A DNA stretch of 64,000 bases from a virus (lineage: Duplodnaviria > Caudoviricetes): IMG/VR virus record IMGVR_UViG_3300046804_003398; one strand, written 5' to 3'. Positions 8,730-61,240 of this stretch are shown in pieces. The translations under genes and the position numbers were made by a program. The notes beneath the pieces were generated by a model. It saw nothing but the letters and a program-made list of their open reading frames with translations. It made no database searches and was not told where the DNA came from. How positions within the stretch are numbered: position 1 is the stretch's first letter; every line of letters begins with the position of its first letter.

Positions 8730-8733
8730 AGTT

Positions 8734-28446: not shown

Positions 28447-28493
28447 ATGTATATAAATATGAACAATTACACAAACTCACCATAAAAAGATGA

Positions 28494-31291: not shown

Positions 31292-31338
31292 ATGTTTACG
31301 ACCACAAATTATCTTTGTTAATAATATATATCTAACGT

Positions 31339-32031
31339 ATGGATGCTATATATCAATGTTATAAAGATAATGATAAGGTAGAATTTGTTCTTGACAATTT
31401 CTTTAAGAATGGCGGCGACAAAGTTTATCTATGTTCAGACCAAGGTGAGGATTTTGGATATCTTTGGGAACGTTATCCAGACCGAGTAATTTATAAAAGA
31501 AATGATGAAAAGAGTTGGTCTGGCAAAGACGGTTTTGAGTCAAAATCAAAAGCACTGTATTGGTTGACATGGTTCACAGAAGCCTGTAGAAGACTAACAT
31601 CAGATCATTTTATACTATTGGAAGACGACATTGAGTTGCGGGGTGACATAAATACTATACCAATTCAGTATGAAATCATGGGTCCACCAAAAAATATACA
31701 CAACACATTTGGTCAGTCCATACAAGATTACATGTATGACATAGATCAACAAAACATACCCATGACGTTTTATGCAGGTTGTGGTGGAACAATCATGAAC
31801 AGAAAAGTGATTGCCAAAGGAGAATTTGTATATATTCTCAACAACCACTATGAATGGATGACCGCAATTGAACAAAAAGCAAAATATTCAGATGCAATTC
31901 TAACAATATTGTTTAGATTGTCGGGTTATCAATCTGGAGAAAATGTTGAATACACTGAACCATTTGTAAACGAAAATTGGGCAACTTCCTCTCACAAAAT
32001 ACTTCATCATAAAAAGTATTACAACGGTTAG
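31339..32031 (+). CDS. GT-A fold glycosyltransferase-like protein
   Basis: HFILLEDDIEL, GCGGTI, YSDAILT. Confidence 0.55.
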   Translation: MDAIYQCYKDNDKVEFVLDNFFKNGGDKVYLCSDQGEDFGYLWERYPDRVIYKRNDEKSWSGKDGFESKSKALYWLTWFTEACRRLTSDHFILLEDDIELRGDINTIPIQYEIMGPPKNIHNTFGQSIQDYMYDIDQQNIPMTFYAGCGGTIMNRKVIAKGEFVYILNNHYEWMTAIEQKAKYSDAILTILFRLSGYQSGENVEYTEPFVNENWATSSHKILHHKKYYNG

Positions 32032-32702
32032 GACAGTGAAAAGTTGTTTTGATGAACAATCTTTGGTTTTACATCAGGTCTACTGTGCCATTTTTCTGGA
32101 TCTGGATACGCATAACCAGATGACAACAATTTAACGGGTTTGTTCAAGAGAAATTTGTTCATATAAGATTCATCAAACCACTTAGCAATGTATCGAATCT
32201 TAAGATCTTGTTTTATCATCTCGTTAATCTCAGTCGCCATCTCCAACACACTGTTTGTATATCCACCAAAGAAACAAGCTTGTAGATAATGGTTATTGCC
32301 ACTGTCCAACACATACGCCGTCGATGATGGGTTGGTATCATACTGTTCACTATTGTATGATTGCCATGGATGTTTTGTTACAACGATTGGAGTATCTGTG
32401 GTTGGAAATACTTCCTCGTCTATATCATCAACAACAATACAATCGCCATCGATAAAGTATAACAAATCAAAATTTCTAAGTATGTGTTGTTTTTGAACCA
32501 GTAGATTAAACTTCATTAATGTTATCAATGGAGATGGTAAATGTGATGTATGAAACACCTCACTGTGTGACGATAAAGCATCAGTGTATACAAAATTGTG
32601 AACAGAGTATTTTGTTAAAAAATGTGTATCTATTGATTTACGTAATGCCGGGTATTTGTCCCAATAAGCATCTGTGGAAATTGTGCATATAGCAATTTTC
32701 AT
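32028..32702 (-). CDS. GT6-family (ABO/alpha-1,3-Gal-T-like) glycosyltransferase
   Basis: AICTISTDAY, FVYTD, LMKFNLL, YFIDGD, KHPW, YLQACFFGG, WFDESYMNKF. Confidence 0.85.
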   Translation of the reverse strand: MKIAICTISTDAYWDKYPALRKSIDTHFLTKYSVHNFVYTDALSSHSEVFHTSHLPSPLITLMKFNLLVQKQHILRNFDLLYFIDGDCIVVDDIDEEVFPTTDTPIVVTKHPWQSYNSEQYDTNPSSTAYVLDSGNNHYLQACFFGGYTNSVLEMATEINEMIKQDLKIRYIAKWFDESYMNKFLLNKPVKLLSSGYAYPDPEKWHSRPDVKPKIVHQNNFSLS

Positions 32703-32772
32703 ATTATAATTTTGATTATCAATTTTTGATTGCCGACTTATTGATACATATATACTGGTATTTCACAATAAC

Positions 32773-33711
32773 ATGAAAGTCAAACTTCTTACATATAATA
32801 ATAGAGCAGGCATCGTGATTGATGCGATGTTGTTACAAAACTTGATTCAAAAAAACGTAGCAGAAAATACCGACATTTTGTTCATAGAACATTTGGGTAA
32901 AAATTGGGCGGTTCCAAATTATGTTGCTGATGAAACAGGTGATGTTGGTATTTGGATTCAGAACCCAAGATATGATTATCTTCATAATTTCAAGAAAAAC
33001 ATTTGGTTTGTGAATGAAGAGTGGGCTGGCGCTGATGACTTGAAGAAGATTGATCAATTTGACTATATCGTTGTAAAGACTGAATACGCAAGGAAGTTGT
33101 TGGAACCCATAAGACCAGACGTTGTGTGTTTGCCATTAATATCTTATGATTTTTACGACCCATCTATTGTAAAGGAACAAAAGTTTCTTCACTTCAACGG
33201 TAGAGCAATTCAAAAGAACACTGAAGCTATAATGCGTCAAAAGATTCCCATGACTGTTGTGGACACTACAAAACGATTTGTTGCGCCTGGGAACGTAGAC
33301 TACATCACACAATACATGATTAAACGTGATATTAAGAAGATGTTGAACCGTCACTCTGTTCACATATGTCCAAGTTTATACGAAAGTTGGGGACACTATT
33401 TGTATGAAGGATTGTCAACTGGCGCCGAAATCATCTGTAGTGACATACCATCGTTTTCAGAACATTTGGACCCATCACTTGTAAGAATAATCCCTACCGT
33501 CGAAAAGATAGATTTGGACTATCATTATTGTAAAGACAACCTTGAGGGAACATTTCCTCTACGTAAAGCATTCTTTCTTGATGAAGAGAAACTTACAAAC
33601 GCTCTTGAAAACTTTGAACCAATTGGTAGAGAACAAGAACGTCGAGATATGTTCCATGATATTATGTTGAAGAATTCCAATCGACTGATAGACTTTTTTA
33701 AGAACATATGA
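32773..33711 (+). CDS. GT-B (GT4-like) glycosyltransferase
   Basis: FLHFNGRAIQKNT, HICPSLYESWGHYLYEGLSTGAEIICSD. Confidence 0.75.
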   Translation: MKVKLLTYNNRAGIVIDAMLLQNLIQKNVAENTDILFIEHLGKNWAVPNYVADETGDVGIWIQNPRYDYLHNFKKNIWFVNEEWAGADDLKKIDQFDYIVVKTEYARKLLEPIRPDVVCLPLISYDFYDPSIVKEQKFLHFNGRAIQKNTEAIMRQKIPMTVVDTTKRFVAPGNVDYITQYMIKRDIKKMLNRHSVHICPSLYESWGHYLYEGLSTGAEIICSDIPSFSEHLDPSLVRIIPTVEKIDLDYHYCKDNLEGTFPLRKAFFLDEEKLTNALENFEPIGREQERRDMFHDIMLKNSNRLIDFFKNI

Positions 33712-34415
33712 AGTTGTGTTACATGTATGATGATGGTTTTTTGCCATTGAGAACTCATTTTCTTGACAATCTAAAAGATACCTTTGAATTGATTGAAAAG
33801 AAGTTAGATACTCCAAAGTTTGAAACAGACTTTCATCAACATAGATTGTTTGGTGGTGGTATTCAAGTTTGGAAAGACAAAGTAAAGTTCTTGTTGGAAA
33901 CCATAGACATATGTGACCCAAACGAATACTTTGTATATTCCGATGTTGATGTGGTATTTTTCAAACCAATCATACCCATATTGAATGAAGTTCTTAACAA
34001 TAAAGATGTGGTGTTCATTAGAGAAATACCACATGGATCTTTGCCACAACAAGGTGGTGATGTAGCAGGTCATTGCAACTTTGGTTTTTGTGTGATCAAG
34101 GCTTGTGATAAATCCAAAAGGTTCTTTCAAGATGTGTTACACATGATTGAGAACACAAAGAACTTCGTAGACTCACATGATCATGCTTTGTGGCCTGATG
34201 GTCTTATGGATCAAACGTGCGTCAACAGAATATTGTTCTCAAATCCAGACTATGATCTTGATTGGGGAACTTTACCTCTTACATTTACAACAACAGCATA
34301 TGAGACATACAATATGATTAACAAAGATACTGTCGCATATCACGCAACATGTGTGATTGAGGTGAACAAAAAGATTGAACTGTTGAACTTGTTTAAACAA
34401 AAGGTGACGGAATGA
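33708..34415 (+). CDS. Nucleotide-diphospho-sugar transferase (GT77-like), copy 1
   Basis: WKDKVKFLL, FVYSDVDVVFF, CNFGFCVIK, DQTCVN, YHATC. Confidence 0.75.
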   Translation: MKLCYMYDDGFLPLRTHFLDNLKDTFELIEKKLDTPKFETDFHQHRLFGGGIQVWKDKVKFLLETIDICDPNEYFVYSDVDVVFFKPIIPILNEVLNNKDVVFIREIPHGSLPQQGGDVAGHCNFGFCVIKACDKSKRFFQDVLHMIENTKNFVDSHDHALWPDGLMDQTCVNRILFSNPDYDLDWGTLPLTFTTTAYETYNMINKDTVAYHATCVIEVNKKIELLNLFKQKVTE

Positions 34416-35131
34416 ATTTATACTACATGTCAGATCCACTATTTGAGGATCTAAAACAAAACTTCATCAACAGTATAAAAGACAAAGAAAACTTCAATCT
34501 GATTGAAATACCAATTGATACTCCTCAATTTGATGAAGAATGTCCAGAACATTGTAAGTTTGGTGGCGGATTCAATACTTGGCAATCAAAGTTGTCTGGG
34601 ATGATTAATGGTATAAATCAAACCAAAGAAGGTGAATATTTTGTATTTTCAGATGTAGACGTAGTTGTGTATAGACCACTACTATCCGCAATCAATCAAG
34701 TGATCAAAGATCAAGATGTAGTATTTCTACGAGAGTTTTTTGACGATCAAGAAAAACAACGATTGAAAGAATATTACGACAAAACACTTGATGGAAATTA
34801 TGACATGCAGTTAGGAAACATCAATATTGGTTTTAACTTGATAAGATCGTGTGATAAAACACATCGATTCTTTTCAGACATATTAAAGATGATCGTGGAT
34901 ACAGGTTTGTTGGAACAAAGTTTGATCAACAAAACTTTATATTCTCCAAACGATTATGATTTGAAATGGGATTTGTTTCCACCTGAATTCTTTTCAACAT
35001 CAGTTGGATTACATCACATACACAATGAAATAAAAGATGTGGTGTTATATCACGCAAACTGTGCGGTCAAAAAACAAACAAAGCTAGAATACATGTATCA
35101 CATTGATAATGTAATCAACCGACGTTTGTAA
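34412..35131 (+). CDS. Nucleotide-diphospho-sugar transferase (GT77-like), copy 2
   Basis: Tandem paralog: WQSKL, FVFSDVDVVVY, INIGFNLIR, EQSLIN, YHANC. Confidence 0.75.
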   Translation: MNLYYMSDPLFEDLKQNFINSIKDKENFNLIEIPIDTPQFDEECPEHCKFGGGFNTWQSKLSGMINGINQTKEGEYFVFSDVDVVVYRPLLSAINQVIKDQDVVFLREFFDDQEKQRLKEYYDKTLDGNYDMQLGNINIGFNLIRSCDKTHRFFSDILKMIVDTGLLEQSLINKTLYSPNDYDLKWDLFPPEFFSTSVGLHHIHNEIKDVVLYHANCAVKKQTKLEYMYHIDNVINRRL

Positions 35132-36209
35132 ATCGGTGCATAGCTTGTCCGATTGCCTGGTGCATATCAAAATACTGATAACATGCCAATCGACCACCCA
35201 GTATCATATTTGGAAAATGTTCTGCACATTCATTCTTATAATGTGTGTATAGACTGTGGTTTTTTTCGTCATTGATTGGGTAATATTTTTCCAACGATCT
35301 ATTCCATGTCTGAGGATACTCACGGGTGATTATAGTGGTCTTCGATTGTGTTTGTTCAAAGTGTTTATGTTCTACTATACGAGTGTATGGAACACTTTGT
35401 TCAGTATAGTTCATTATGGCATTACCTTGATAATCAGAATCAAATACTTCTGATATGTCGAATCTAAGACTTCTGTATTCCAACTCACCCTTGTTATATC
35501 CAAACAGTTCATCCAACGCACCAGTGTATACCACTTTGTTTGCTTTACTAGACCAATACTCAAGGTCTTTTAGAAAGTCTACACCAGTTTCAATTGGTAT
35601 GTCTTTCATCATGTTTTTTATCATCTGAGTATATCCTCCAATCGGAATACCTTGATATGTGTCGTTGTAATAGTTATCGTCATACGTCAGTCTGATTGGC
35701 AAACGTTTGATGATAAACGATGGCAATTCTTTTGGATCTCTACCCCATTGTTTTGTGGTGTATCCTTTTATAAACGTATGATACAAGTCTTCACCCACTT
35801 GACTCAGAATCCACTCTTCCAAGTTCTGTGGGTTCTCAATTTTAACTCGCACAGATTCTAGTTTACTTTTTGCTTCACTTGGTGTTTGACATCCCCACAG
35901 TTGGTAAAGAGTAAACATATTAATTGGAAACGAATATATGTTATTCTTGTATTTCACCTTTGGTCTGTTGACAAAGTTGTTGAACGTTGCAAACTTGTTG
36001 ACGTAATCCCATATTTCTTTATTTGATGTATGAAATATGTGCGGACCATACACATGAACGTTGATGTTCTGTATTCTGTCGGTGTAACAATTACCAGCAA
36101 CGTGTGGTCTTTTTTCCAAGATCAAACACGATTTACCGGCTTCTTTTGCGAGATTGGCAAACGTGGCACCAAACAAACCACTGCCAACAATCAAATAATC
36201 ATACTTCAT
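35115..36209 (-). CDS. glf: UDP-galactopyranose mutase
   Basis: YDYLIVGSGLFGA, HVYGPHIFHT, GYTTKQWG, YQGIPIGGYT, YTRIVEHKHF, YYPIND, GRLACYQYFDMHQAI. Confidence 0.95.
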   Translation of the reverse strand: MKYDYLIVGSGLFGATFANLAKEAGKSCLILEKRPHVAGNCYTDRIQNINVHVYGPHIFHTSNKEIWDYVNKFATFNNFVNRPKVKYKNNIYSFPINMFTLYQLWGCQTPSEAKSKLESVRVKIENPQNLEEWILSQVGEDLYHTFIKGYTTKQWGRDPKELPSFIIKRLPIRLTYDDNYYNDTYQGIPIGGYTQMIKNMMKDIPIETGVDFLKDLEYWSSKANKVVYTGALDELFGYNKGELEYRSLRFDISEVFDSDYQGNAIMNYTEQSVPYTRIVEHKHFEQTQSKTTIITREYPQTWNRSLEKYYPINDEKNHSLYTHYKNECAEHFPNMILGGRLACYQYFDMHQAIGQAMHRFTNVG

Positions 36210-36951
36210 GGAATTTATATTCTAGTCTATCTGAGAAAGTGGGAGGCATGTAGTTTGTAAATTCATGACTCTTGTAAATTTCTTCGTTGTATGATGCTCC
36301 CAACACACCAATATGATTTAACCTAGAAAGTCTTGGAGTCACCGTTTTAATTTTATCCAAATAATGAGGAAGTAGATGTTCAGAAAAACACCATACATGT
36401 GGCCATTTCTTCATACAATCAAACCACATTTTTCTGGTGCAAAGATACCCCCATGTAGCAAAGTAAACCATGCCTGTTCTAACCGGATGAAAGTTGTTTT
36501 TGATTTCCAACACATCTTTACCATCGTCACTTTGTGGAGGATCAACCAAGTTGTCTTTGTTCAAGTAAGTCAAAATCGTATTGTTATCATAATACTGTGA
36601 GTTGACATAGAACTTGGTAATGTCATACATGTCATTAGACATCACACAATCATCCTCGGTGTAAATCACATGTTCCAAGTTTAGTATCTCAAAACTGTAG
36701 TAGAGTGTCATGTATTGGTTCAACAACAGTCCATATTTGTATGGATTAACCATTATGCGTATGTTTGGATACAATCTCAACTTTGTGAGTAGATCAAAAT
36801 TCATTGCGTCTGGTTCAACCAAAAACACGAAATTCATTTTGTCAAAATCACGTTGTGCCAAACAAGAATTTATGTATGTTTGAAAATATTCAAGACGATG
36901 TGGCTTTCCTAAATAAACTGGGGCAACTATGGTAACATCATTCATACTCAT
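36199..36951 (-). CDS. GT-A fold glycosyltransferase-like protein
   Basis: FVFLVEP, VIYTEDDCV, TWGY, PRLSRLNHIG. Confidence 0.6.
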   Translation of the reverse strand: MSMNDVTIVAPVYLGKPHRLEYFQTYINSCLAQRDFDKMNFVFLVEPDAMNFDLLTKLRLYPNIRIMVNPYKYGLLLNQYMTLYYSFEILNLEHVIYTEDDCVMSNDMYDITKFYVNSQYYDNNTILTYLNKDNLVDPPQSDDGKDVLEIKNNFHPVRTGMVYFATWGYLCTRKMWFDCMKKWPHVWCFSEHLLPHYLDKIKTVTPRLSRLNHIGVLGASYNEEIYKSHEFTNYMPPTFSDRLEYKFHEV

Positions 36952-37011
36952 ATATATCTACGTCGATTATTATACATTGCGCAATACAAGACAAAACTCT
37001 ATATATAATTA

Positions 37012-37836
37012 ATGAAACTAATCACGTTCATCAACTTTGCTTATATAGATATTTGTTATAATTTGTATCTTCAACTCAAACGGTTTTCCCGTCATACCGA
37101 TCTGGTTGTGTTTTGCACCGATGAGAATACATATAACTCAATGACATCCAAAAATCTGGAATGTGACATACAACTATACAAACCAGTTTTGTTTGCAAAC
37201 ATATCGGATAAACTAAAACGTCATTTGGATAACACCGATCTCGCCGCAACATATAAACGAAGCGAATCATACTCAGTATATCAGTTTTTAAAGCATGATG
37301 TAGTTTACCAAACACTGTTGAACAATGATCGGGTGTGTCTGATTGATTCAGATTTGATAATCTTCGAAGATTTTGTTGATGAATTGATATACTGGATGGA
37401 TAACGACAACAAGTTTTATCATACAGAACCAGCTACATTTGGATTCAAGTATTATTTGCAAATAAGAACCGGCGTCGATCCACTCAAAAAAGAACATTTA
37501 TATCAATGGATTGGACGAGAGAAAACCATAAATACTGGGTTCATGTATGTTAGACGATCTGATGCTTCGTTTCATCACATCCAAAACTACAGTAATCTAT
37601 TTCTGCCACATTTTGACCACTTGAATAATTTGGATGAACATATAATGACCGAGTATTTCAGAAACATCATTGAGAATACGGTTGATATAAAAGATCAAAT
37701 TAACCTACTAAGTGATGTAGGGGTAAATTATACCTACGAACAAGTGTTGAGAATCAAACCAAAAACATATCACCCAACATTCACTGGTGACAAAATTGAG
37801 TTCATGAAAAACTGCAATCAGTGGTTTGTCGAATAA
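37012..37836 (+). CDS. Nucleotide-diphospho-sugar transferase (GT77-like), copy 3
   Basis: LVVFCTD, FLKHDVV, LIDSDLIIF, INTGFMYVR, DEH; TTGCGC-17-TATATA upstream. Confidence 0.7.
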   Translation: MKLITFINFAYIDICYNLYLQLKRFSRHTDLVVFCTDENTYNSMTSKNLECDIQLYKPVLFANISDKLKRHLDNTDLAATYKRSESYSVYQFLKHDVVYQTLLNNDRVCLIDSDLIIFEDFVDELIYWMDNDNKFYHTEPATFGFKYYLQIRTGVDPLKKEHLYQWIGREKTINTGFMYVRRSDASFHHIQNYSNLFLPHFDHLNNLDEHIMTEYFRNIIENTVDIKDQINLLSDVGVNYTYEQVLRIKPKTYHPTFTGDKIEFMKNCNQWFVE

Positions 37837-38396
37837 TTCCAAATCAACGGCCAAAGTCTTTCATATACCCAAGGAGTTGTTGGCAGATTGTTTGTAAACA
37901 CATCATACGAATGTTTCCACCAATCCAAACTCTTTGAAAGGATTTTGTGTTTTGGAACGATGTATTGTGCTCCGGCGGAAAACGTGAATGTAGTGGTTTT
38001 ATCAAATGTGCAGTTCTCAAACAAAAGCTTTGAGATTTTGATCATAGGTAGAAAACATCCATGGCCTGGTCCACCGTCATAATTTTTTGTTACTGGACCC
38101 CAATTGCTGCCCAACCAAACAACGTCATCGACATCACGTTTTTCATCAATCAATTTCAATACATCCCAACAATGATCAAATGGATCGCCTTGAAGAAACA
38201 CAAGTTCGTCGCTCAAGTTGTGATAATTGTTGACGATGTGATACAACATACTGTCTGCTTCTCGACCGACGTTTGGCAATGTTTTAAACTCATACGGCAA
38301 CAACGGAAACCCTTTGTTGTAAATAACCACATCATCCTTGACTTTTTCAACCCAACTCAAGTTTTCGTCAAATCTGGTTATTACCAAAGTCCGCAT
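37818..38396 (-). CDS. DUF3431-like protein (putative glycosyltransferase)
   Basis: LVITRFDENLSW, IYNKG, LPNVGREAD..LYHIVNNY, FLQGDPFDH, AGAQYIV, ERLW. Confidence 0.8.
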   Translation of the reverse strand: MRTLVITRFDENLSWVEKVKDDVVIYNKGFPLLPYEFKTLPNVGREADSMLYHIVNNYHNLSDELVFLQGDPFDHCWDVLKLIDEKRDVDDVVWLGSNWGPVTKNYDGGPGHGCFLPMIKISKLLFENCTFDKTTTFTFSAGAQYIVPKHKILSKSLDWWKHSYDVFTNNLPTTPWVYERLWPLIWNYSTNH

Positions 38397-38397
38397 T

Positions 38398-39291
38398 TTA
38401 GTGGATGATGAACGGTTGATTCTTAATTCTTTCAACAAAAGTCAATTTGTCGATGCTCATCTTTACAGCAGAACAATCATTTAATCCACCATAAATGTGA
38501 ATCGACTTGTCATCTGTTACAACATTCATTGGAAAGATCACTTCATATTTGATTGCATTTCTATGAGTTGTGTTTCTCCATGACCACAGACGATTCAATA
38601 CATAGGAACTTGAATAGTTTCTATCTGATACCAATAATGGATTTAGACAGTATCCGACTGGTGTAACGTCATTCTTCACTTTCATAACACCAATGAAGTA
38701 TCTCATTATTGCTGGTCCAAAGTAAACATAACTATGATACAACAAGAACTTTTCACCATGAACATCAAATACGTTGGTGCTTAATCCTGGGTTACCATAC
38801 TTCTCAATCCATGGCTTCCAGTTGATTTTCTTGACAAATACTTCTTGTTCAGACGAATCCATTATTGTGTATGGATTAACGTGGTAGATTATGTAGTTGT
38901 TGTGAAACTGCCAATGTTTCTCAAAATGTGCTCGACGGGTTATGTAGTGGTAGAGTTTCTTTGTTTCAAGATTGTATCTCTTGAAATGAACACCCTCAAG
39001 TTTGGCAAGATCTTCAATATCAAATTTGGCAACACATACACCAATGTTTTTGTCATCGATCCATCTTGCATCTTCAAAACTGTAGTGATACTCTTCATCC
39101 GCATAATTTTGAAGTATGATCGCACCGTCTTGATCAACAATATCACAAGCATGAAAGTCTCTGCTTATTTTGTGTTCTTTACGAAATATGGTTCGACCGT
39201 TCAAGTGCGAACAGTTAAAATAATTGTTGGTGCCGTCAAACTGTTTCAACAATTCAACTTCAAGTTCCTCAAATGCAAAAATTGGACTCAT
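38398..39291 (-). CDS. Beta-propeller glycoside hydrolase/phosphorylase-like (GH130/DUF377-like) protein
   Basis: SFEDARW, EKHWQF, LLYHS, VIFPMNVV..D..IHIYGGLND. Confidence 0.6.
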   Translation of the reverse strand: MSPIFAFEELEVELLKQFDGTNNYFNCSHLNGRTIFRKEHKISRDFHACDIVDQDGAIILQNYADEEYHYSFEDARWIDDKNIGVCVAKFDIEDLAKLEGVHFKRYNLETKKLYHYITRRAHFEKHWQFHNNYIIYHVNPYTIMDSSEQEVFVKKINWKPWIEKYGNPGLSTNVFDVHGEKFLLYHSYVYFGPAIMRYFIGVMKVKNDVTPVGYCLNPLLVSDRNYSSSYVLNRLWSWRNTTHRNAIKYEVIFPMNVVTDDKSIHIYGGLNDCSAVKMSIDKLTFVERIKNQPFIIH

Positions 39292-39292
39292 A

Positions 39293-41608: not shown

Positions 41609-41624
41609 AAAAATATATAGATTT

Positions 41625-48992: not shown

Positions 48993-48996
48993 TATT

Positions 48997-49422: not shown

Positions 49423-49426
49423 AACA

Positions 49427-50845: not shown

Positions 50846-50846
50846 C

Positions 50847-51281: not shown

Positions 51282-51390
51282 AGTAGTTTCTGTTCAATCA
51301 TATCATAACTAGAACACATGTCAATTTGTGTAATTATTATATTTTGATCGTGTTAGTCTTATAATCAGACTACTAAATATATATTGTTGA

Positions 51391-52645: not shown

Positions 52646-53420
52646 CGCACAAATACTTTCTTACAACATCTTCACATTTTGTCTTGGCTAGCTCTAAATC
52701 GCCAGTTTTGATATACTCTTCGTAATCAATCATACATCTATTAGTTTCGTAATTTTTACAAAGTGGGTGTATATTCAATGTATTGTATGTCAACCTACTC
52801 AAATACTCTTGATCTACATTTGGCAACTTTTCTTTAGGAGCAAAAAAACAATCGTGGACTTTAGTTTTTGACCACTCGCCAATATAAATCAACAAGTAAT
52901 CATGTTTATTGGCCACCATTGTCAACGCTTTAACCGATGATCCCCAGATTGCGTCACAATTCCAAATTCTATTCGGATCGTTTTCAAATGCAATTGCAAC
53001 ATCGTGTGGAAGTGCAGGATTATATTCACAAGTTACAAGTGATGGTCGATACACATCTAATAACTTATCCATCAACCAAATGTCTGTAGAATCAACATCT
53101 ATAGACAAGTATCCAAGTGACTTTGGAACGGAGTATTTGTCAAATATTGACACTATATTTTCTGTGGTCAAATAGTGTTGATACAAGTTAATATCAGGGT
53201 TGTGATGTCCTCCGTCCAAGTATAAGTTTTTCCACCCATGTTTTTTTACCAATATGTGTGTATTTCCGTTGTAATCAATATTGTCTGAACTATATCCAAA
53301 CTCCACACAAAACTTCTGATCATCTGGTATCTGTAGATTGTCAATTATGTATTGTATAACATAAGTTGAAGACTCTACACGTTCATAATTAGAAATATTT
53401 TTAATCCACTCTGATTGCAT
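52638..53420 (-). CDS. FkbM-like SAM methyltransferase
   Basis: FCVEFG, GWKNLYLDG, TTENI, LSIDVDSTDIW, CEYN. Confidence 0.75.
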   Translation of the reverse strand: MQSEWIKNISNYERVESSTYVIQYIIDNLQIPDDQKFCVEFGYSSDNIDYNGNTHILVKKHGWKNLYLDGGHHNPDINLYQHYLTTENIVSIFDKYSVPKSLGYLSIDVDSTDIWLMDKLLDVYRPSLVTCEYNPALPHDVAIAFENDPNRIWNCDAIWGSSVKALTMVANKHDYLLIYIGEWSKTKVHDCFFAPKEKLPNVDQEYLSRLTYNTLNIHPLCKNYETNRCMIDYEEYIKTGDLELAKTKCEDVVRKYLCVN

Positions 53421-53424
53421 ATAT

Positions 53425-54543
53425 GTGTTTTACGATAATATGTATCATGTGAGCCTCAGTATGTTTCATTTATATAAAGACAATAAGATTGTAAGAAATA
53501 TTAGAGATTTGTCAAAATACGACAATTCTACGTTCATTTTCAAAAAACATGTTGAGTTTGATGAACGAGTTAGTTTTTATAGAAATTGTGAAGTAAAACC
53601 TTTCTTTTTTTACATACCATATTTTAACGGAAAAATACTCAGAGATTGTGGCGGCGCTTTTGAAAATGACGAACGTGTTAATCTGAATATTGTTCGTGAA
53701 CCGAAACCACCCATAATCATATCCGACCCAGTGTTTTATTTGGATGATGCGTGGGGTGGAAACTTTCATCATTGGTTCTGGGAATATGCTCCAAAAATCA
53801 TGCGGTTTATCAAGTTGAAGGAACACATTCCAAACTTAAAGTTGTTGATAAACTTGAAGATATTGTCACAAGACGAGTTGAAACAAATATTGGGTCGTTA
53901 TGCAGATGATGTGATATACATGGACCCATACCTAGAACAGTCATATCAATGTGATCAACTATACATTGCCAATCCAACTTCATGTTGGAAACCAAATTAT
54001 TTTTGTGAAGAAATACGCACGGATCTTTTTAAACTGTTGATCGACACTTTTTATGATCCATCATATGATTGGCCACACACCAAAATTTATATTTCTAGGT
54101 ATAACAACTGTTTGGTTCACAATGCTACAAGAAAAGTGTTGAATATTTTAGAGGTCCACAGATTTTTTGAACATTTTGGTTATAAGCCAATATTCACAGA
54201 CAAACTGAACTTCAAAGACAGAGTAAACATATTTCAAAGAGCTACGCATATATGTTGTGAACACGGTGGTGGGGCCAATCACATATTCTTGACAAAAGAA
54301 CATACCAAGATGGGTATAATCAATTTTCCAAATTTAGAGTTTAATGACCAATGGTTGGAATATAATAAATTCAATCGAACCGTCATTCAATTAGAAAATA
54401 TTGGACAATATATGGAAGACAGATTTATATGTAAGTATCCAACTGTCGAACCTATAAACTATAAAATACAAGATGCATCTAAACCATGGTGTCTTGATCT
54501 CTATCAATTAGAAACCGCACTTAAACGTTACGCATTTTTATGA
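53425..54543 (+). CDS. GT61-family (DUF563-like) glycosyltransferase
   Basis: NFHHWFWEYAPKI, KIYISR, RKVLN, FQRATHICCEHGGGANHIF. Confidence 0.75.
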   Translation: MFYDNMYHVSLSMFHLYKDNKIVRNIRDLSKYDNSTFIFKKHVEFDERVSFYRNCEVKPFFFYIPYFNGKILRDCGGAFENDERVNLNIVREPKPPIIISDPVFYLDDAWGGNFHHWFWEYAPKIMRFIKLKEHIPNLKLLINLKILSQDELKQILGRYADDVIYMDPYLEQSYQCDQLYIANPTSCWKPNYFCEEIRTDLFKLLIDTFYDPSYDWPHTKIYISRYNNCLVHNATRKVLNILEVHRFFEHFGYKPIFTDKLNFKDRVNIFQRATHICCEHGGGANHIFLTKEHTKMGIINFPNLEFNDQWLEYNKFNRTVIQLENIGQYMEDRFICKYPTVEPINYKIQDASKPWCLDLYQLETALKRYAFL

Positions 54544-55208
54544 AATTTACACAAACAGACTATTTTTTGAACGTTGAAAACCTCACGATCAATACCGATG
54601 TTGAAGGAACACATCGTAGATTCAGAACCATATTTGAAGCACTCGAAAAATTAAATCTACCAGAATATCACATCATTGAAACTGGATGTGCTCGTTGGAA
54701 TAAAAACTGGAAAGGTGAAGGTCAATTTACATTGATCGCCGATGAATTTGTCAATTATTACAAAGGTCATCTCTACTCAGTCAACATAAACCCAAATGAT
54801 GTCAATGCTGCAAGAAGTTATGTGGGTGACAATGCTACAATAGAATTGGATGATAGTGTAAACTTCCTCAAGAACTTCAAAGACTTGGAAAAGATATCGT
54901 TGTTTTATCTTGATTCAATGGATTTAGAGTGGGGTAATCCATGGCCTTCAGAAGAACATCATCTTAAGGAGTTCTGCACAATATTCTCAAGAAGAACCTC
55001 TGCCAACTTTTATCTTGCTATAGACGATTGTAACATAAACTTCTGTGGCAAGGTGATTGGTAAAGGACAACAAATCAAGAGGATGTTGGATGGTCTTGGT
55101 ATCAAACCAATATTAGATGAATATCAAATAATGTATTTCATTGATCAATCAACATTTGATACAATAAAATCACACCTGATTAAATTGGATTACTTCCATT
55201 ATCTCTGA
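54540..55208 (+). CDS. Class I methyltransferase-like protein
   Basis: IIETGCAR, GQFT, DSVNFL, FYLDSMD, HHLKEF, AIDD, GKG. Confidence 0.7.
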   Translation: MKFTQTDYFLNVENLTINTDVEGTHRRFRTIFEALEKLNLPEYHIIETGCARWNKNWKGEGQFTLIADEFVNYYKGHLYSVNINPNDVNAARSYVGDNATIELDDSVNFLKNFKDLEKISLFYLDSMDLEWGNPWPSEEHHLKEFCTIFSRRTSANFYLAIDDCNINFCGKVIGKGQQIKRMLDGLGIKPILDEYQIMYFIDQSTFDTIKSHLIKLDYFHYL

Positions 55209-55983
55209 CAAACTGTAGAACATCATCATTGTTCATCTTGAGGTTGCTCTGTATAATCCAGAACGCATCTGTTTTTCTTAATTGAGATTCGTGTTCGTCT
55301 GGATTCCAAAGACCACTACAAAAAGTCTTTGTAACATCATCGGCATACAAATACTTGCCATTGACATGTAAGTAATAGTGCATGTATTCTGTTCCAATAT
55401 TACCCAATACAAAGTCTTTGACAAACGTTGGGTGATTTGTTTCCAGATTGTCTAACAGCTGTTTTACTTCATCAGTAATCATCAACGCCGGAGTTACACC
55501 ATAATGGAACTTCCACAAGACAGTCTTTGGATCTCTGTTGATATATCCAAGCGTATCATACAACCATTTTACATGACAACAAGTATCATATTGTGATCTA
55601 TCTAAATGTTGTGATGCATCATAGATGAACAAAATAATCTCACCGTCTTCATTGAAGAACTCGTTGAAATCAAACTTTCGATTCACATATAAATCACTAT
55701 CCAACAACAAATAATGTGTGGTCTGTATTTGTCGTGCTATATACAGCTTCAATAAGCATTGTTTGAAGTAACCAGAACAACGTGTTGGCGTTACAACCAC
55801 ATCATGGTCCAATACTACAGTGTATGTATCATCCAATTGTAATGAGTCACACATCTTAGGTATGATAACAATCTTGGGACAGTTGGTAAATTTCAACGAT
55901 GGCGCCAAGACTTTATTGAACCGTTCAACATCATAATCCGACTTGGTGTTGATTGGTATTACTATAGAAAATGTGTGATTCAT
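55180..55983 (-). CDS. GT-A-like protein (DUF6492-like)
   Basis: GYFKQCLLKL, YLLLDSDLY, GVTP, TEYMHY. Confidence 0.65.
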   Translation of the reverse strand: MNHTFSIVIPINTKSDYDVERFNKVLAPSLKFTNCPKIVIIPKMCDSLQLDDTYTVVLDHDVVVTPTRCSGYFKQCLLKLYIARQIQTTHYLLLDSDLYVNRKFDFNEFFNEDGEIILFIYDASQHLDRSQYDTCCHVKWLYDTLGYINRDPKTVLWKFHYGVTPALMITDEVKQLLDNLETNHPTFVKDFVLGNIGTEYMHYYLHVNGKYLYADDVTKTFCSGLWNPDEHESQLRKTDAFWIIQSNLKMNNDDVLQFVRDNGSNPI

Positions 55984-57122
55984 AATAAATTGAGTCTAAT
56001 CGAAATAGTATCATATACCACTCTACGTATGTTTTCAATTGTAAAATGTGACTCAGACAATTTATACATTTCATCTCTAACCGATTCAAACTTATCTAAA
56101 TTGTTATTTACATCGTTTATCTTCTCAACCAAATCACTTAGATCTTTTTTAATTTTGATATAGTGTTTGTCTGGAACCAGTTGATGTTCAGCATATGACC
56201 ACACTGGATGATCTGTAGAGAATATGATTCTGTTTGTTTGAATCAAATGTGGCACTCGACCACTAAATCCACCAGCACCAACCTCAATCAGATAGTCAAA
56301 GTCTTTTACTTGATCTTCAAATGTGACATATTCAGAGTATGTGAACTCTGGTGAAATGTCTTTTTCTGGCGATTGATGTTTTATCCAATGTTTGGCATCA
56401 ATCAAATCTGGATATTTCTGTGACAATTTTACCAACGATTTTCTTTGAGCACAGTTAAGAGATCCTCGCCAACCAACCTTTTGTTGCAATCCCTTGTTAT
56501 GTTTAGCATACTCACGTTTGTATTTGGTGAGATTATTAAAATTGACTCCAAGAAAATCACTATAAGCACATGTTGGTAATATGGATAATGTGTTATTGAC
56601 CAACAGACCACGTTTGTAATATTGTGGATCGGTCAACTGTTTGACATCTGGTAGAAACTCTCGTTGGTTATAAGCGCCTAGATCAACTTCGTGTTGTTCA
56701 AATTCATAATTGTAATATGCGGTTGAAAACACAGGAATTTTGATATTATCCAACATGTGTTTGGTAGGACCAGAATCATGTAGAACTATCTGAATCCAGT
56801 CAAAATTCTTGAAGTTATACTCCGCGTCAACATCGTTTAATAACTTGATGGTTGCGAATGGTCTGTCATCATTGTAATGACCATAATCCATTTTACCATT
56901 GTGTTTTCTTACAAATAACGTTGACGCTTGATAATATTGTGGGTATGGTGTCCCCCAATAATAAGGGTAATCACTTTCTTTCATTCCCCATCCAATATCA
57001 TCAAGAGTATTATATGATTTATTGATGCTATAGTCTTTGCACAGATCGGCGTTACCGTGCCATCGTGATGGGTGTGAATTGATATAAATTACCTCAGACA
57101 TACTATCAACCTCGGAACTCAC
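55980..57122 (-). CDS. GT90-family (CAP10-like) glycosyltransferase
   Basis: KVGWRGS, EDQVKDFDYLIEVGAGGFSGRVPHL, PDKHYIKIKKDLSDLVEKI. Confidence 0.75.
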   Translation of the reverse strand: MSSEVDSMSEVIYINSHPSRWHGNADLCKDYSINKSYNTLDDIGWGMKESDYPYYWGTPYPQYYQASTLFVRKHNGKMDYGHYNDDRPFATIKLLNDVDAEYNFKNFDWIQIVLHDSGPTKHMLDNIKIPVFSTAYYNYEFEQHEVDLGAYNQREFLPDVKQLTDPQYYKRGLLVNNTLSILPTCAYSDFLGVNFNNLTKYKREYAKHNKGLQQKVGWRGSLNCAQRKSLVKLSQKYPDLIDAKHWIKHQSPEKDISPEFTYSEYVTFEDQVKDFDYLIEVGAGGFSGRVPHLIQTNRIIFSTDHPVWSYAEHQLVPDKHYIKIKKDLSDLVEKINDVNNNLDKFESVRDEMYKLSESHFTIENIRRVVYDTISIRLNLL

Positions 57123-58167
57123 TTAAATTACCAAAGTCTATAAGATCATAATTCAGATCTTGTCTAATAACATTCAAGAATTCGCCATGTTCTGGATGAC
57201 TTGGATCAAATATGTTGTGTTTGTTAAACTCATCTGGAGAATATGTTCCCCAATTTACAATCCTTGATAGATAACAATAGAAACTATGTGATCTTGCTAT
57301 GTCCACAAACAGTGGTATTTCTTTGTAATTCTTCTGTTGACATACAAAGTCCAATCTAACCCAATGCAACTTACCTTTGTCAAATAGTGTTTCAACAAAG
57401 TCCAAGTTACGCATCAACTTCTTCCAATCACCACCTTTTCTAGTGTAATTGTAAGTTTCTTCGGTTCCAGCATCCAAACTGATTATTGTGCTGATTCGAT
57501 TGTTGTGAATCTTGTTCATCTTATCCCAGTTTTCTTCTGTGAATAGAACACCGTTTGTTTGAAGTTGGAACTCTACCAATGGATTCTTTACACCTTCAAA
57601 TGAAGTCAAAAACTCCCAAAACAACCTACTAGCAAATGGATCTCCAGACCCAGTAACATTGATTGTGGTTCTTACCTTACATGTATAAAGATACTCAATC
57701 AACTTTTCTTGAAATTGAACCTTGGTGTAATACTCGTTGCCCACACTCTTTTCATTCAAGAAAACAAAATTCTCACGACAACTTGGACATCTCAAATTGC
57801 AACTTCTATCATAACATAGATTGATGAAGTTTGGATTGGATGAAATCAGTTGTTTTTCTTCATAGATTTTCTTTTTGTCCGCACCATGTTTTCCAGCCAA
57901 AACATCTTCTACGTTTGGCAATGAATCATTTTGAATCATCGGACATTGAGTTCTATTGCAATACTTATAACTTCCGTCCAGAATTGATTCTCTAAACCTT
58001 TGAGCTTTTTCTCCATTCCATCTATTCTCAAATCCTTCTGAAATTCTTACTTTGCCAAAGTTATACTGATTGACCCAGTTTGGACAACACGGATACATGT
58101 TGGTATCATCTTGGATCTCCATGAAGTCCCAAGGTCTAAAACACATCTTTTTGGTCAAGTCTTTCAT
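57106..58167 (-). CDS. Radical SAM protein with twitch/SPASM-like Cys cluster
   Basis: CFRPW...YPCC...CNRTQCP; CNLRCPSC; GSGDPF; QTNG; SLDAGT. Confidence 0.85.
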   Translation of the reverse strand: MKDLTKKMCFRPWDFMEIQDDTNMYPCCPNWVNQYNFGKVRISEGFENRWNGEKAQRFRESILDGSYKYCNRTQCPMIQNDSLPNVEDVLAGKHGADKKKIYEEKQLISSNPNFINLCYDRSCNLRCPSCRENFVFLNEKSVGNEYYTKVQFQEKLIEYLYTCKVRTTINVTGSGDPFASRLFWEFLTSFEGVKNPLVEFQLQTNGVLFTEENWDKMNKIHNNRISTIISLDAGTEETYNYTRKGGDWKKLMRNLDFVETLFDKGKLHWVRLDFVCQQKNYKEIPLFVDIARSHSFYCYLSRIVNWGTYSPDEFNKHNIFDPSHPEHGEFLNVIRQDLNYDLIDFGNLSEFRG

Positions 58168-58595
58168 TATTGTCCTCCGTTAATAACTTTATCTTCAGCA
58201 CTCATACGATGTTTGTTTTGTTCAAATAACTTGTATAACTTATGAAGGTCTGAGTCTGGTGATAAAACCGTCCAGATATTATTTTCTGCATTTTCACACA
58301 CAATAATACTTTCAATTTTTACTTTGGCAACTTTTTTATCCAGAATGTCAAATACGTCATTTGCGTTGGACTTTAACTTAAGAACTTCTGGTCCATTTTT
58401 TACATTCACTGTAACCGTATTGGTGTAGAGTGTATGTAGATCCAATGGTGCTTCTTTCCAACATTTATCTTGATCGGAATAAAACACGATCAAGTCATCT
58501 GTCAATTGAACAACGTCAAGTTTGTTTATGTGTTTGATTGTTGATACGGGAACGGTATAAACAATATTGTTATAGTAGACTTCTTTAATATTCAT
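58167..58595 (-). CDS. Hypothetical protein
   Basis: 142 aa, overlap-coupled in the operon. Confidence 0.6.
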   Translation of the reverse strand: MNIKEVYYNNIVYTVPVSTIKHINKLDVVQLTDDLIVFYSDQDKCWKEAPLDLHTLYTNTVTVNVKNGPEVLKLKSNANDVFDILDKKVAKVKIESIIVCENAENNIWTVLSPDSDLHKLYKLFEQNKHRMSAEDKVINGGQ

Positions 58596-61240
58596 AGACT
58601 TTTATAAATCTTAGAATTGACCATACTTTCTAAGAAATGACCAATTTCAACTTTGTATCTCATAGTTTTCAGATAAAGATGTGCTCTCCTAATGAGGTCC
58701 AAATCTTTAAGCTTTTCTTCCAGATCAAACTGACTATCAATATATAGTGGATATCCTTCACCCAAGTATTCGACAACAGCGGGCAAACGATTTATAAATA
58801 TTGGAGTCGCTCTGGCCATACATTCAATGATACCATTGTTTGCACTACTATCGTATAGATCCAAATAAACGACATTCTCTGTCAAAATCTTATCATATTC
58901 ATCGTTTGGCAAAAAGTCAAGGATTTTAACAGAGTTACGTTGTTCATCAGTGATGTATTGATTACTGACAAGAGACTCTATTTTTTCTAATCTGAAAATG
59001 GTGTCTTTACACTTATTGTTTGGAAGCAATCTGACCTTTTGATAACCGTGCGCTCTAACAGTATATAACGCATTCAATTTACGTAACCACCAGCCAATCG
59101 TAATAAGCTTTTTCTCTTGATTCTTTGCAAACCTTTCAAAATCAAATTGTAACTCTGGAATTTCAGTTGGATGATATAGTGACTCAACTGGAATAAAAGG
59201 TATGTATTGACGTATCACCTTGGCATGATATTCGGATAAAGTATAGATACCCTTACATCTTCTAAGACTGTCTAGGAAGTATGGATCTTGCAATATGATG
59301 TTACTGAATGCATTGTTGTCACTAAACCACGGTGGCATGTTTGGAGGATTGTGAATAAACCCAATCCAACTCTTGTTGTAAGGAATAGTCTTTTGAAGAA
59401 TACATTCTGTCTTTCTCCAACTAAAATTGTTCTCTATAAACCCATCACAATAAACGCCACTGTTGCTATTGAGAGCGGCCATGTTGTGCAACACATAATT
59501 CCATCCAGATCTATGTGAATAGAAAGACAATTGTCTACCAAGATTGATCTTCTTTGGATACTTGTTATTATCAGTCAACTCTTTGAACTTGATGATGATG
59601 TCACCATACTCACCCTTGTTCAAGACATTTGACTTCTCTATAACAAATCCAGTTTCTACCAATACACGTTCGTTGAAATTGGTATCTTTGAATAACAACC
59701 TGCTGGTATTGTTCTTGATACCATTGACATAAACGTCTACAATCTTGATGCCATACCGATTGTTGCCAGATCGGTTTATAAATGACCCGTCGAATGTAAC
59801 ATCACAGTTGATCTTGACATTCTTTTCTTCTTTGGAAATTATCTTCAATGAGTGTTGACCACGTTTCATCGAATATACATGATCAACTTCATTTATAGTA
59901 AACGTCACATTGACATCGGTAATTGATTCCAATACAACTTCAAATTTGTATACATCGGGCCCAATTACAATTTCAGCTTCTTTGTCTGACCAAATACCAT
60001 TGACCAACGATTCATTGTGCCATCCATTTTTAAAGTAAATTGGAAACAATGAAGACTCTTCCGTTTGTGACGTATTTGGTTGATACAATTCTACTGGGTC
60101 CAAATATACGCATTTTCTAATATTTGTGTAGTATGCGTTCTTGAGACTGTTGCACAAATCTTCGTATGACGGATCAACACTCTTGGTGTTCATATTGATC
60201 CACATCAACATTGATGTATCTATGTTTTTGTCATAACTACTGATATATGTTGTGTTGTAATTAACCTCAAACAATCTAGGATAGTTTGTAAGGTAATCTG
60301 TCATACCGCCGTGTAAAGGACTTACAATATCTTTATTCTTAGTCTTTGCGGTGTAACATGGTATATTGAATCCTTCACCTCTTGATACGTTAACATAAAT
60401 GTCAGTGTCATCATGTAGACTCTGAATTTTGTCAAAGCTCAACCTTTCGCTTATTACTACAATAGGAGCATAAGCAAAGTCTTTGTCCCGATTCTTGATC
60501 TTTTTGAGTATGATCTCTTGTATATGTTTCTCAATGGTCTTAACATTATTAAGGTTATCAGTGAACTTACATATCAATAATGTTTCGTCATCAAAAGCAA
60601 ATGAATCCAAATATGCTTCGATCAAAAATCCCGTGTTCTTTCTGGATACCAATGACGATACATTCAGAAACTTGACTCTCTTGGCAAACCGTTGATAGTT
60701 TATTGGAACCGGACTGAATATTCTGGCATTTTCAAATAAGTCAACTATATTGTGACGTTTATAGTGAACGGGTGGTATGGTGTGTGGTTCCACTATAATA
60801 TCCTTCTTGATGCCTGAATTTACAAACACCTCTTTACACCATTGTGAAGGCACGCTTACTACATTTACGATACTGTCATTTATCGATTTTACCCACTTGT
60901 CTGGAAGCGGATCAAAGTCCCATACAGTTCTGCCAGTAATTTTTTTGTTACCAATCCAATCTTTGTGTGACTCAATAACTTGATTCCAGATGTCGGGTGT
61001 AAAATGAATCACCACTTCCGAATCACTCAACTTTTCTTTCTTTGAAAATACTGGAAGCTTCTTTAAGTTGTTGTGAAAATACTTATAAAACTCAGTGTCG
61101 TCTTTTACTGGTTCTCCAGACAATGTAGCAAAATAAACTTCATGACCGTTTTGTAATAGGTCATAAATGTATCCCTTGGCCGCATTAGCATACCCACTCG
61201 CACCATCCGCACCGAAATAAACAACTTTCTTGTTACTCAT
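58592..61240 (-). CDS. Three-domain glycosyltransferase (GT4-like, beta-sandwich, second GT-B-like domain)
   Basis: GASGYANAAKG..RGEGFNIP; FKNGWHNE..IWS..RYGI; HRSGWNYV..WIGFIHNP..DSSANNGIIECMARATP; TATTTAT at 61247-61253. Confidence 0.8.
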   Translation of the reverse strand: MSNKKVVYFGADGASGYANAAKGYIYDLLQNGHEVYFATLSGEPVKDDTEFYKYFHNNLKKLPVFSKKEKLSDSEVVIHFTPDIWNQVIESHKDWIGNKKITGRTVWDFDPLPDKWVKSINDSIVNVVSVPSQWCKEVFVNSGIKKDIIVEPHTIPPVHYKRHNIVDLFENARIFSPVPINYQRFAKRVKFLNVSSLVSRKNTGFLIEAYLDSFAFDDETLLICKFTDNLNNVKTIEKHIQEIILKKIKNRDKDFAYAPIVVISERLSFDKIQSLHDDTDIYVNVSRGEGFNIPCYTAKTKNKDIVSPLHGGMTDYLTNYPRLFEVNYNTTYISSYDKNIDTSMLMWINMNTKSVDPSYEDLCNSLKNAYYTNIRKCVYLDPVELYQPNTSQTEESSLFPIYFKNGWHNESLVNGIWSDKEAEIVIGPDVYKFEVVLESITDVNVTFTINEVDHVYSMKRGQHSLKIISKEEKNVKINCDVTFDGSFINRSGNNRYGIKIVDVYVNGIKNNTSRLLFKDTNFNERVLVETGFVIEKSNVLNKGEYGDIIIKFKELTDNNKYPKKINLGRQLSFYSHRSGWNYVLHNMAALNSNSGVYCDGFIENNFSWRKTECILQKTIPYNKSWIGFIHNPPNMPPWFSDNNAFSNIILQDPYFLDSLRRCKGIYTLSEYHAKVIRQYIPFIPVESLYHPTEIPELQFDFERFAKNQEKKLITIGWWLRKLNALYTVRAHGYQKVRLLPNNKCKDTIFRLEKIESLVSNQYITDEQRNSVKILDFLPNDEYDKILTENVVYLDLYDSSANNGIIECMARATPIFINRLPAVVEYLGEGYPLYIDSQFDLEEKLKDLDLIRRAHLYLKTMRYKVEIGHFLESMVNSKIYKSL

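Follow-up and report, generated by a model that had tools for sequence, protein, structure and literature searches.

The 64,000-nucleotide sequence IMGVR_UViG_3300046804_003398 (the window), a stretch of 36% GC DNA from an uncultured freshwater jumbo phage, carries a large set of glycosyltransferase (GT) genes in a slot between the gene for a gp44-type clamp-loader ATPase and the gene for a DUF5661 protein. The full functional unit occupies this slot, positions 25666-61284. It is very likely a real glycan island in a conserved, variable slot, and it is likely that assembly is soluble and cytoplasmic, with no export machinery encoded in the island. Judged from its sequence, the island appears to be a phage-autonomous, cytoplasmic, and diversifying glycan assembly locus, in which four enzyme families recur throughout the filled slots of related phages while most of the remaining content changes from one phage to the next.

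A first-pass annotation of the window had described 33 consecutive genes between 31339 and 61240, and this open reading frame (ORF) structure was confirmed: the 33 ORFs lie back to back on both strands with almost no non-coding DNA. As a unit that interval is too short, however, and the slot adds three B12-binding radical S-adenosylmethionine (SAM) genes and a methyltransferase gene, for a total of 35.6 kb and 33-38 genes depending on the limits taken, arranged as at least six transcription blocks that use both strands. Approximately 20 of the 33 ORFs are GT-like (9 on strong, 7 on moderate, and 4 on weak evidence), in good agreement with the roughly 21 proposed earlier. The Pfam scan covered 59 of the 79 window ORFs, and firm island matches were accepted at E values of 1e-8 or lower. 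No Pfam family was found for 18 island ORFs, and a PHROG scan of the same 18 added almost nothing. Megablast of 12-kb window pieces against GenBank phages gave no match. An all-against-all phmmer comparison of the ORFs at E values up to 1 returned mostly noise, profiles A1, A2, A4, and A5 returned only noise against PDB sequences, and single-sequence PDB searches with the products of 44631, 42752, 52638, and 38398 (genes are referred to here by their first coordinate) yielded nothing informative.

The slot was compared in nine phages including the window, with sizes taken from contig coordinates; one of the eight filled slots contains an 8-kb sequence gap. The slots measure 1.7, 11.3, 13.7, 17.2, 17.6, 18.5, 28.0, 31.8, and 35.6 kb, the window's being the largest. 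Together they encode 189 ORFs in 73 families, nearly all glycan-related, and the coding fraction of the fully sequenced filled slots is 0.92-0.99. Slightly under half of the families (36) are restricted to one of the nine slots, and only four enzyme families are present throughout the filled ones: the GT4 family of 49427, to which the N-terminus of the 58592 product also belongs (8 of 8 filled slots), the GT4-like family of 32773 (8 of 8), the GH130-like family of 38398 (7 of 7 fully sequenced filled slots), and the GNT-I-like GT-A family of 36199 (7 of 7). These core families are kept across 40-70% protein divergence. Found in relatives only are GT25, GT17, GT10, and GT32-like transferases, many methyltransferases, epimerases, dehydratases, a hexapeptide acyltransferase, and a cytidylyltransferase. 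Distant clade members, whose clamp loaders are 66-72% identical to that of the window, carry different islands between the same neighbors: one border is made up of polB, two small genes, and the clamp loader, the opposite one of the DUF5661 and lysozyme-domain proteins. In IMGVR_UViG_3300021092_002038 (L107/L153), whose clamp loader is 52% identical, the slot is almost empty, 1.7 kb with two small ORFs, and the island is therefore accessory and dispensable.

Two IMG/VR contigs, G001 and G002, bear the same island as the window. G002 is approximately 99% identical to the window and lacks 52638. The proteins flanking 39293 and 44631 are 99-100% identical between these two phages, but the 39293 and 44631 products themselves are only 69-70% identical, and 39293 exists as three alleles. 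Such allele swapping has the pattern of a recombining antigen locus. The more diverged G001 lacks the three B12 enzymes, 31339, and the GT6 gene, and has 4.5 kb of other genes in place of 52638-55983. Genes 39293-45812 are an expansion in the window lineage.

None of the proteins of the island looks like a membrane protein. A Kyte-Doolittle scan of the 79 window ORFs found no transmembrane segment, only one marginal value of 1.61 inside a GT-B protein; no signal-peptide-like N-terminus was seen among the island proteins, and none of the 189 slot proteins of the nine phages was multi-pass by hydropathy. These calls come from a crude hydropathy scan rather than TMHMM, and the outcome was uniform. 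Pfam and hydropathy likewise revealed no flippase, polymerase, ABC exporter, or priming transferase in the island or among the 189 slot proteins. The island has no initiating phosphoglycosyl transferase, Wzx, Wzy, Wzz, or Wzm/Wzt, and no GtrA, GtrB, membrane-type Gtr, or membrane acyltransferase occurs among the 73 slot families and their Pfam matches. The earlier claims that multi-pass proteins and the usual export and priming functions (Wzx, Wzy, ABC exporter, priming transferase) are missing thus hold, as does the description of a set suited to cytoplasmic glycan assembly, comprising soluble GTs, nucleoside diphosphate (NDP)-sugar enzymes, a methyltransferase, and radical SAM enzymes.

The core enzyme encoded by 38398-39291 (minus strand; 295 residues) is modeled by AlphaFold2 (AF2) as a five-bladed propeller with a predicted local distance difference test (pLDDT) score of 91 and a predicted template modeling score (pTM) of 0.90. 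Foldseek matched the model to the beta-1,2-mannobiose phosphorylase 5b0q (E 2e-8, TM-score 0.58) and to the Leishmania GDP-mannose mannosyltransferase MPT-1 (6q4w, E 4e-6). No Pfam model matched the protein even at an E value of 10, including Glyco_hydro_130, and its profile found no PDB chain; the modeled structure thus has the fold of GH130/GT108, with membership of these families not found by sequence, and the earlier GH130-like assignment is supported through the fold. Its own family includes more than 150 metagenome clusters with 44-91% identity, all labeled "hypothetical" and without a Pfam model. Among the models in AFDB and BFVD the propeller fold occurs fused to pyruvyl-, fucosyl-, LicD-type, and GT1 domains in giant viruses and cells. 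Because the fold recurs fused to glycan-synthesis domains, we favor a synthetic direction for the reaction, and the enzyme probably transfers mannosyl residues. The products of 38398, 36199, and 37818 had no tblastn match in 50,697 GenBank phage records, and the 38398 family was not found in 185,579 prokaryote genomes, in a scan with two peptide patterns only whose low sensitivity makes it weak evidence of absence.

The second core enzyme, encoded by 36199-36951 (minus), is a predicted GT-A protein resembling GNT-I/MGAT2, with an ESM Atlas score of 0.98 and 217 shared features, in phage clusters. The two GT4-type core enzymes are encoded by 49427-50845 (minus; 472 residues with a 130-residue N-terminal extension; Pfam GT1, E 2.8e-9), which is flanked by two small genes that are paralogues by sequence comparison (48997-49422 and 50847-51281, both minus), and by 32773-33711 (plus; Pfam GT1, E 1.4e-5).

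The 882-residue protein of 58592-61240 (minus), annotated previously as a GT, is a double GT-B enzyme according to PHROG, AF2, and Foldseek. Its N-terminal GT4-like domain (residues 1-330) matches a PHROG glycosyltransferase (E 3e-17) and is paralogous to the product of 2234-3214 and to the C-terminal part of the 49427-50845 product. Residues 330-882 are modeled (AF2 pLDDT 85) as a beta-sandwich followed by a second GT-B domain (approximately residues 540-882), for which Foldseek returned SenB, GlgM, SdgB, and OtsA at E values of approximately 1e-8. This module of about 340 residues is conserved at 42-58% in more than 200 metagenomic proteins, has no Pfam model, and occurs elsewhere alone, duplicated, or fused to GT4, GT25, GT2, sulfotransferase, or radical SAM domains. 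The match between the 882-residue protein and PBCV-1 B736L is a faint one in sequence only (E 0.13).

A TATTTAT motif ahead of this gene had been thought to be shared with head-type genes. The strands carry 10 and 19 copies, where base composition predicts approximately 22 each, so the motif is not enriched in the window, which also contains no head gene for comparison, and its candidacy as a late or head motif was dropped. TATTTAT(A) precedes 58592, 24361, 27937, 14563, 10566, and 11567, and motifs of the type TATATA(T/A) precede several island operons (gaps 31292-31338, 36952-37011, 51282-51390, and 26433-26470). The two kinds of start could represent two promoter classes.

The rest of the island is described here from the clamp-loader end. 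Next to the 882-residue GT is an ORF of 142 residues (58167-58595, minus) without Pfam or PHROG matches, whose G001 orthologue is 61% identical, followed by the radical SAM enzyme recognized earlier (57106-58167, minus), with Pfam SPASM at residues 9-75 and Radical_SAM at residues 122-256. The SPASM domain here precedes the radical SAM core, whereas it usually follows it, and a SPASM protein is also present in the slot of a relative. A GT90-like transferase (55980-57122, minus; Glyco_transf_90, E 6.5e-11), a DUF6492 protein (55180-55983, minus; Pfam E 2e-15), a 222-residue ORF (54540-55208, plus; PHROG 24975), and a GT61-like transferase (53425-54543, plus; Glyco_transf_61, E 3e-12) come next, the second and third of these being missing from G001. 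The strain-specific ORF of 260 residues at 52638-53420 (minus) had been paired, as a GDPD, with a nucleotidyltransferase. Pfam upholds the nucleotidyltransferase, but 52638 has no Pfam, PHROG, or PDB match and is missing from G001, G002, and one river RNA-library contig, and the GDPD assignment is not supported. The nucleotidyltransferase, MobA/IspD-like (51830-52645; NTP_transf_3), instead forms a pair with a 157-residue PHROG 34507 protein (51391-52645 in all, plus) that is found again in other viral contigs.

Three GT-B (GT4-like) genes, 45809-46804, 46801-47958, and 47955-48992 (all minus), are kept at 92-95% in G001. Pfam matches 45809 and 47955 weakly to GT1/GT4, and 46801 is a paralogue of 45809, in keeping with the GT-B paralogs noted in the first-pass annotation. 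A five-member GT-A family had also been proposed. Three of its members, the GT2-like genes 39293-40447, 41625-42755, and 44631-45812 (all minus), belong together: 39293 and 44631, like 36199, have GT-A-like features in the language-model-based ESM Atlas (scores 0.96-0.98), 41625 and 39293 are 39% identical paralogues, and hhalign links 39293, 41625, and 44631 only (46-66%), with shallow alignments of three orthologues. The other two fall into rare families without Pfam or PDB matches: that of 42752-43756 (minus) has 23 representatives in 1.8 billion clusters and an invariant DSD, and that of 43753-44634 (minus) has 22 homologues. Of the three or four methyltransferases expected between 31339 and 61240, only one is firm (40916-41608, minus; Methyltransf_24) and one is faint (40435-40941, minus; 168 residues).

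Toward the DUF5661 end lie a DUF3431 gene (37818-38438, minus; E 5.6e-10), a UDP-galactopyranose mutase gene, glf (35115-36209, minus; GLF, E 2e-74), as annotated originally, and a GT6 gene (32028-32702, minus; E 1e-18) that is missing from G001. Pfam agrees with the GT6, GT4-like, GT61, GT90, DUF3431, and DUF6492 calls made before, and with two of three GT77-like calls, the paralogous Nucleotid_trans genes 33708-34415 and 34412-35131 (both plus; E 1e-8 and 2e-11); the third, a 274-residue ORF at 37012-37836 (plus), matches Nucleotid_trans faintly and below threshold (E 0.012). A 230-residue ORF (31339-32031, plus) is divergently paired with a B12-radical SAM gene.

The left extension of the island (25884-31291, mixed strands) was identified by Pfam. 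It comprises a Methyltransf_24 gene (25884-26432), three B12-binding radical SAM paralogues that are 39-52% identical among themselves (26471-27940, plus; 28494-29924, minus; 29921-31291, minus), and a conserved gene for a 169-residue protein (27937-28446). All three B12 enzymes are missing from G001; one copy is kept in the relative L008, where it is divergently paired with a 31339-like gene (55% identity), the same arrangement as in the window. The left anchor, a 434-residue DUF5661 protein (24361-25665, minus; E 5e-12), stands beside the islands of all relatives examined. The 169-residue protein is faintly similar to DUF5661, and the two bracket the slot insertion points in all relatives; short segments of these proteins match cyanophages and huge phages, and there is a 218-nucleotide non-coding gap upstream of 24361.

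The right anchor is the clamp loader (61285-62244, minus; Pfam AAA, DNA_pol3_delta2, and Gp44_lid). Its nearest named counterparts in GenBank phages are those of an uncultured 484-kb phage (46% identical), Microcystis phage Mel-JY01 (40%), and PA5oct-like jumbo phages (38%). With the 739-residue protein carrying a phage-lysozyme domain to the left of the DUF5661 gene, and polB in the relatives, this gene supports the reading of the locus as that of a tailed phage.

Further left, the window contains the sugar-supply genes that had been expected outside the island, all identified by Pfam. A GDP-mannose 4,6-dehydratase (GMD) gene and a NifU/IscU-like Fe-S scaffold gene (20430-20831) occupy 19280-20831 (plus; E 5e-102 and 9e-48), near a SNF2-type helicase gene. 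A cluster at the left end consists of a GT4 gene (2234-3214, minus), an rmlA-like gene (3294-4139), an RmlD/NRS-ER-like gene (4136-5002), a dTDP-glucose-type 4,6-dehydratase (rmlB-like) gene (5005-5964), and a GNAT gene (5968-6348), with an inorganic pyrophosphatase gene at 8677-9267. The four radical SAM enzymes and NDP-sugar synthesis could plausibly be served by the Fe-S scaffold and the pyrophosphatase. A ThyA-family gene, which runs off the window edge so that the residues telling a thymidylate synthase from a hydroxymethylase fall outside, and genes for DHFR and dCMP deaminase lie at 1-1099 and 6618-7178. Interspersed among the sugar-supply genes are those for a PAS-domain protein, a staphylococcal-nuclease homologue, a ClpP-like protease, and an HNH endonuclease (7175-7786, 10933-11403, 12684-13298, and 13700-14344).

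The stretch is present in freshwater, river, lake, and some marine-labeled sequencing runs. In four river RNA libraries, contigs with 90-99% identity span most of 42-62 kb, with DNA carry-over possible, and cover is absent in parts, for example 52.7-54.7 kb. One of these contigs skips 813 nucleotides across 52638, as in G002, and has 12 other letters instead.

Under the explanation that we favor, the NDP-sugar enzymes of the phage (rmlA, rmlB, RmlD-like, GMD, glf, and the IspD-like nucleotidyltransferase) would feed the approximately 20 soluble transferases, and the pyrophosphatase would pull the NDP-sugar reactions forward. The transferases would add sugars stepwise to one or a few acceptors in the cytoplasm, with no phage-encoded step of lipid-carrier priming, flipping, or polymerization. 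The four core enzymes (the two GT4-type transferases, the GNT-I-like GT-A, and the GH130-like propeller) would build a conserved inner part, to which lineage-specific transferases, methyltransferases, and radical SAM enzymes would add a variable outer part reshuffled by recombination. The acceptor would be the phage's own virion proteins, and the island a particle-surface "serotype" locus. We tentatively take virion proteins to be the best explanation of the acceptor, because no lipid-linked or export component has been acquired despite extensive gene flux, because the strain-level allele swapping suggests that the phage itself bears the variable structure, and because the architecture parallels the capsid glycans of chloroviruses and the clade-specific clusters of Megavirinae. 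The fuller picture, of particles coating themselves with a methylated heteroglycan whose inner core is made by four enzymes and whose recombining outer set defines the particle "serotype," is offered with greater reserve.

Several observations weigh against this explanation. Nothing in the sequence identifies the acceptor: no Ser/Thr/Pro-rich (mucin-like) candidate was found in the window or in the 17-24 kb of extra DNA of G001 and G002, and no head or tail gene adjoins the island except that for the lysozyme-domain protein. Thirteen of the 33 island ORFs have a weak assignment (four) or none (nine: 31339, 40435, 43753, 48997, 50847, 51391, 52638, 54540, and 58167), that 33-38 genes act on one product is an assumption, and the river RNA-library contigs may hold DNA carry-over. 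The likeness to O-antigen loci, where soluble GT2, GT4, and GT25 enzymes together with rml, gmd, and glf are standard, points toward the host, and a phage without export genes could rely on those of its host. Clusters of this kind in pelagimyophages and cyanomyophages have been read as altering the host O-chain (PMC7029224, PMC3037559). On such a reading the transferases would act at the inner membrane face on host undecaprenyl-phosphate-linked intermediates or lipopolysaccharide (LPS) core, and a host flippase, ABC transporter, and ligase would export the altered glycan, masking receptors over a long latent period (superinfection exclusion). Soluble GTs are all that this route needs from the phage, and O-antigen loci show the same mix of GT2, GT4, GT25, rml, gmd, glf, and methyltransferases. 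Large multi-GT fusion proteins, like methyl capping, are also known from ABC-transporter-dependent O-polysaccharide pathways (WbdA, WbdD). We nevertheless think host-envelope remodeling, though a serious rival, somewhat less likely. The 189 proteins and 73 families of nine phages include no membrane or export component in spite of heavy gene flux, a glycan assembled by some 20 foreign transferases would need to suit the particular export and ligation reactions of the host, and strain-level allele swapping is more easily explained by a glycan borne on the phage. Nor do the core families resemble recent acquisitions from host LPS loci, since tblastn with the 38398, 36199, and 37818 products found nothing in 50,697 GenBank phages, and the two-pattern scan for the 38398 family found nothing in 185,579 prokaryote genomes.

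The slot might instead have no single product and collect independent sugar genes directed at various targets, such as different virion proteins, host molecules, or soluble metabolites, with part of them decaying or neutral "stuffer" DNA, as has been raised for the LPS clusters of cyanophages (PMC3037559). The almost empty 1.7-kb slot of one relative, the two coding strands with at least six transcription blocks, and the confinement of 36 of the 73 families to one of nine slots are what such a collection would lead one to expect. The ORFs, however, are all intact and tightly packed (coding fraction 0.92-0.99), four families persist across 40-70% protein divergence, the supply genes match the transferase set, and transcripts, or at least RNA-library contigs, extend over the region; we regard this alternative as unlikely. 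Hypermodification of phage DNA, in which the transferases would glycosylate hydroxymethylated or hydroxylated pyrimidines and so evade nucleases, seems very improbable. Phage GTs do put mono- to trisaccharides on 5-hydroxymethylcytosine or 5-hydroxycytosine (bioRxiv 10.1101/2023.12.21.572611; PMC13326640), a phage glf has been proposed to supply galactofuranose for DNA (PMC13326640), and a thymidylate-synthase-family gene lies at the window edge. Known DNA-glycosylation clusters, however, have one to three transferases rather than about 20, neither a TET/5mYOX enzyme nor a DNA cytosine methyltransferase turned up among the window ORFs compared with Pfam (59 of 79), and the ThyA-like gene adjoins DHFR and dCMP deaminase, which would be the ordinary dTMP route. 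We also know of no precedent on DNA for O-methylation, radical SAM tailoring, or GH130-like chemistry.

The background to the first-pass annotation, which set small gtrABC cassettes against giant viruses, was incomplete, having overlooked the clusters of aquatic myophages. The "LPS" clusters of P-SSM2 and S-SSM7 are said to make up 72-85% of the additional genome size of these phages, with a function described as unknown (PMC3037559); pelagimyophages have GT-rich hypervariable islands (PMC7029224). As in the cyanomyophages P-SSM2, S-SSM7, and S-SM2 and the pelagimyophages, a large aquatic phage of myovirus type here devotes tens of kilobases to soluble GT and deoxysugar genes, and content varies between relatives within syntenic flanks (1.7-35.6 kb, 73 families). 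The present phage is of another lineage, with a clamp loader at most 46% identical to that of any GenBank phage. Its island lies between the clamp loader and DUF5661, whereas the published clusters sit in a tail-fiber host-recognition cluster or near hli03/phoH, and megablast gave no match in GenBank phages, the 38398, 36199, and 37818 products being without a tblastn match in the same 50,697 phage records. A four-enzyme core with a swappable periphery and tailoring by B12 and SPASM radical SAM enzymes are further differences.

Chloroviruses make a conserved five-sugar core with soluble, partly multidomain viral GTs (PMC7826918), and Megavirinae have clade-specific glycan clusters (PMC10117803). 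The island resembles both in its soluble viral GTs, some multidomain (as PBCV-1 A064R, A111/114R, and A075L), in its predicted NDP-sugars (rhamnose and GDP-mannose-derived) and methylated sugars, and in a proposed conserved core with strain-specific decoration; giant-virus glycan enzymes, too, include the GH130-like propeller fold. Those, however, are eukaryotic viruses whose glycans have been solved experimentally on known proteins, whereas the present virus is a tailed phage, and the glycan genes of PBCV-1 are scattered while those of the island are clustered in one slot. In mycobacteriophages (Che8, Corndog, and Myrna type), capsid and tail-tube subunits are reported to be modified by cytoplasmic transferases of the phage and, in some phages, by methyltransferases (as cited in PMC12619734 and PMC11256854). 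That virion glycosylation takes two to four genes against 33-38 in the island, and the likeness is one of gene type. The "Moraphage" lineage is described as lacking much of the replication machinery, unlike the present phage (PMC12619734). Bacterial O-antigen and capsule loci share with the island a conserved slot, variable transferases, allele replacement by recombination, and rml, gmd, and glf, but the island is without their phosphoglycosyl transferase, Wzx, Wzy, Wzz, Wzm/Wzt, or any membrane protein. The gtrABC genes are likewise a phage-encoded sugar modification, but they specify three membrane proteins that act in the periplasm and belong to temperate phages, none of which is a feature of the island.

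Since 2005-2010 some aquatic myophages have been known to devote tens of kilobases to "LPS-like" genes, whose purpose is debated (stuffer DNA, host-surface conversion, or virion decoration). The present locus differs from these precedents in lineage, genome position, gene families, the four-enzyme core with its swappable periphery, and the radical SAM tailoring. The locus sharpens the question by offering one conserved slot and a minimal four-enzyme core open to expression and assay, and it holds families that have no Pfam model, including the 295-residue GH130-like family, the 340-residue GT-B module, and the families of 42752 and 43753. Reshuffling of the periphery separates even near-identical strains, as is characteristic of a surface antigen under diversifying selection, and no membrane step has been gained among the 73 families in nine slots. 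If the product is carried on the particle, phage virions would have glycan serotypes, which may affect adsorption, aggregation, grazing, and decay in lakes, and may bear on the engineering of phage surfaces. The slot between the clamp loader and DUF5661 would in that case be the first phage-virion serotype locus, and its resemblance to chlorovirus capsid glycans and bacterial O-antigen loci would be one of convergence.

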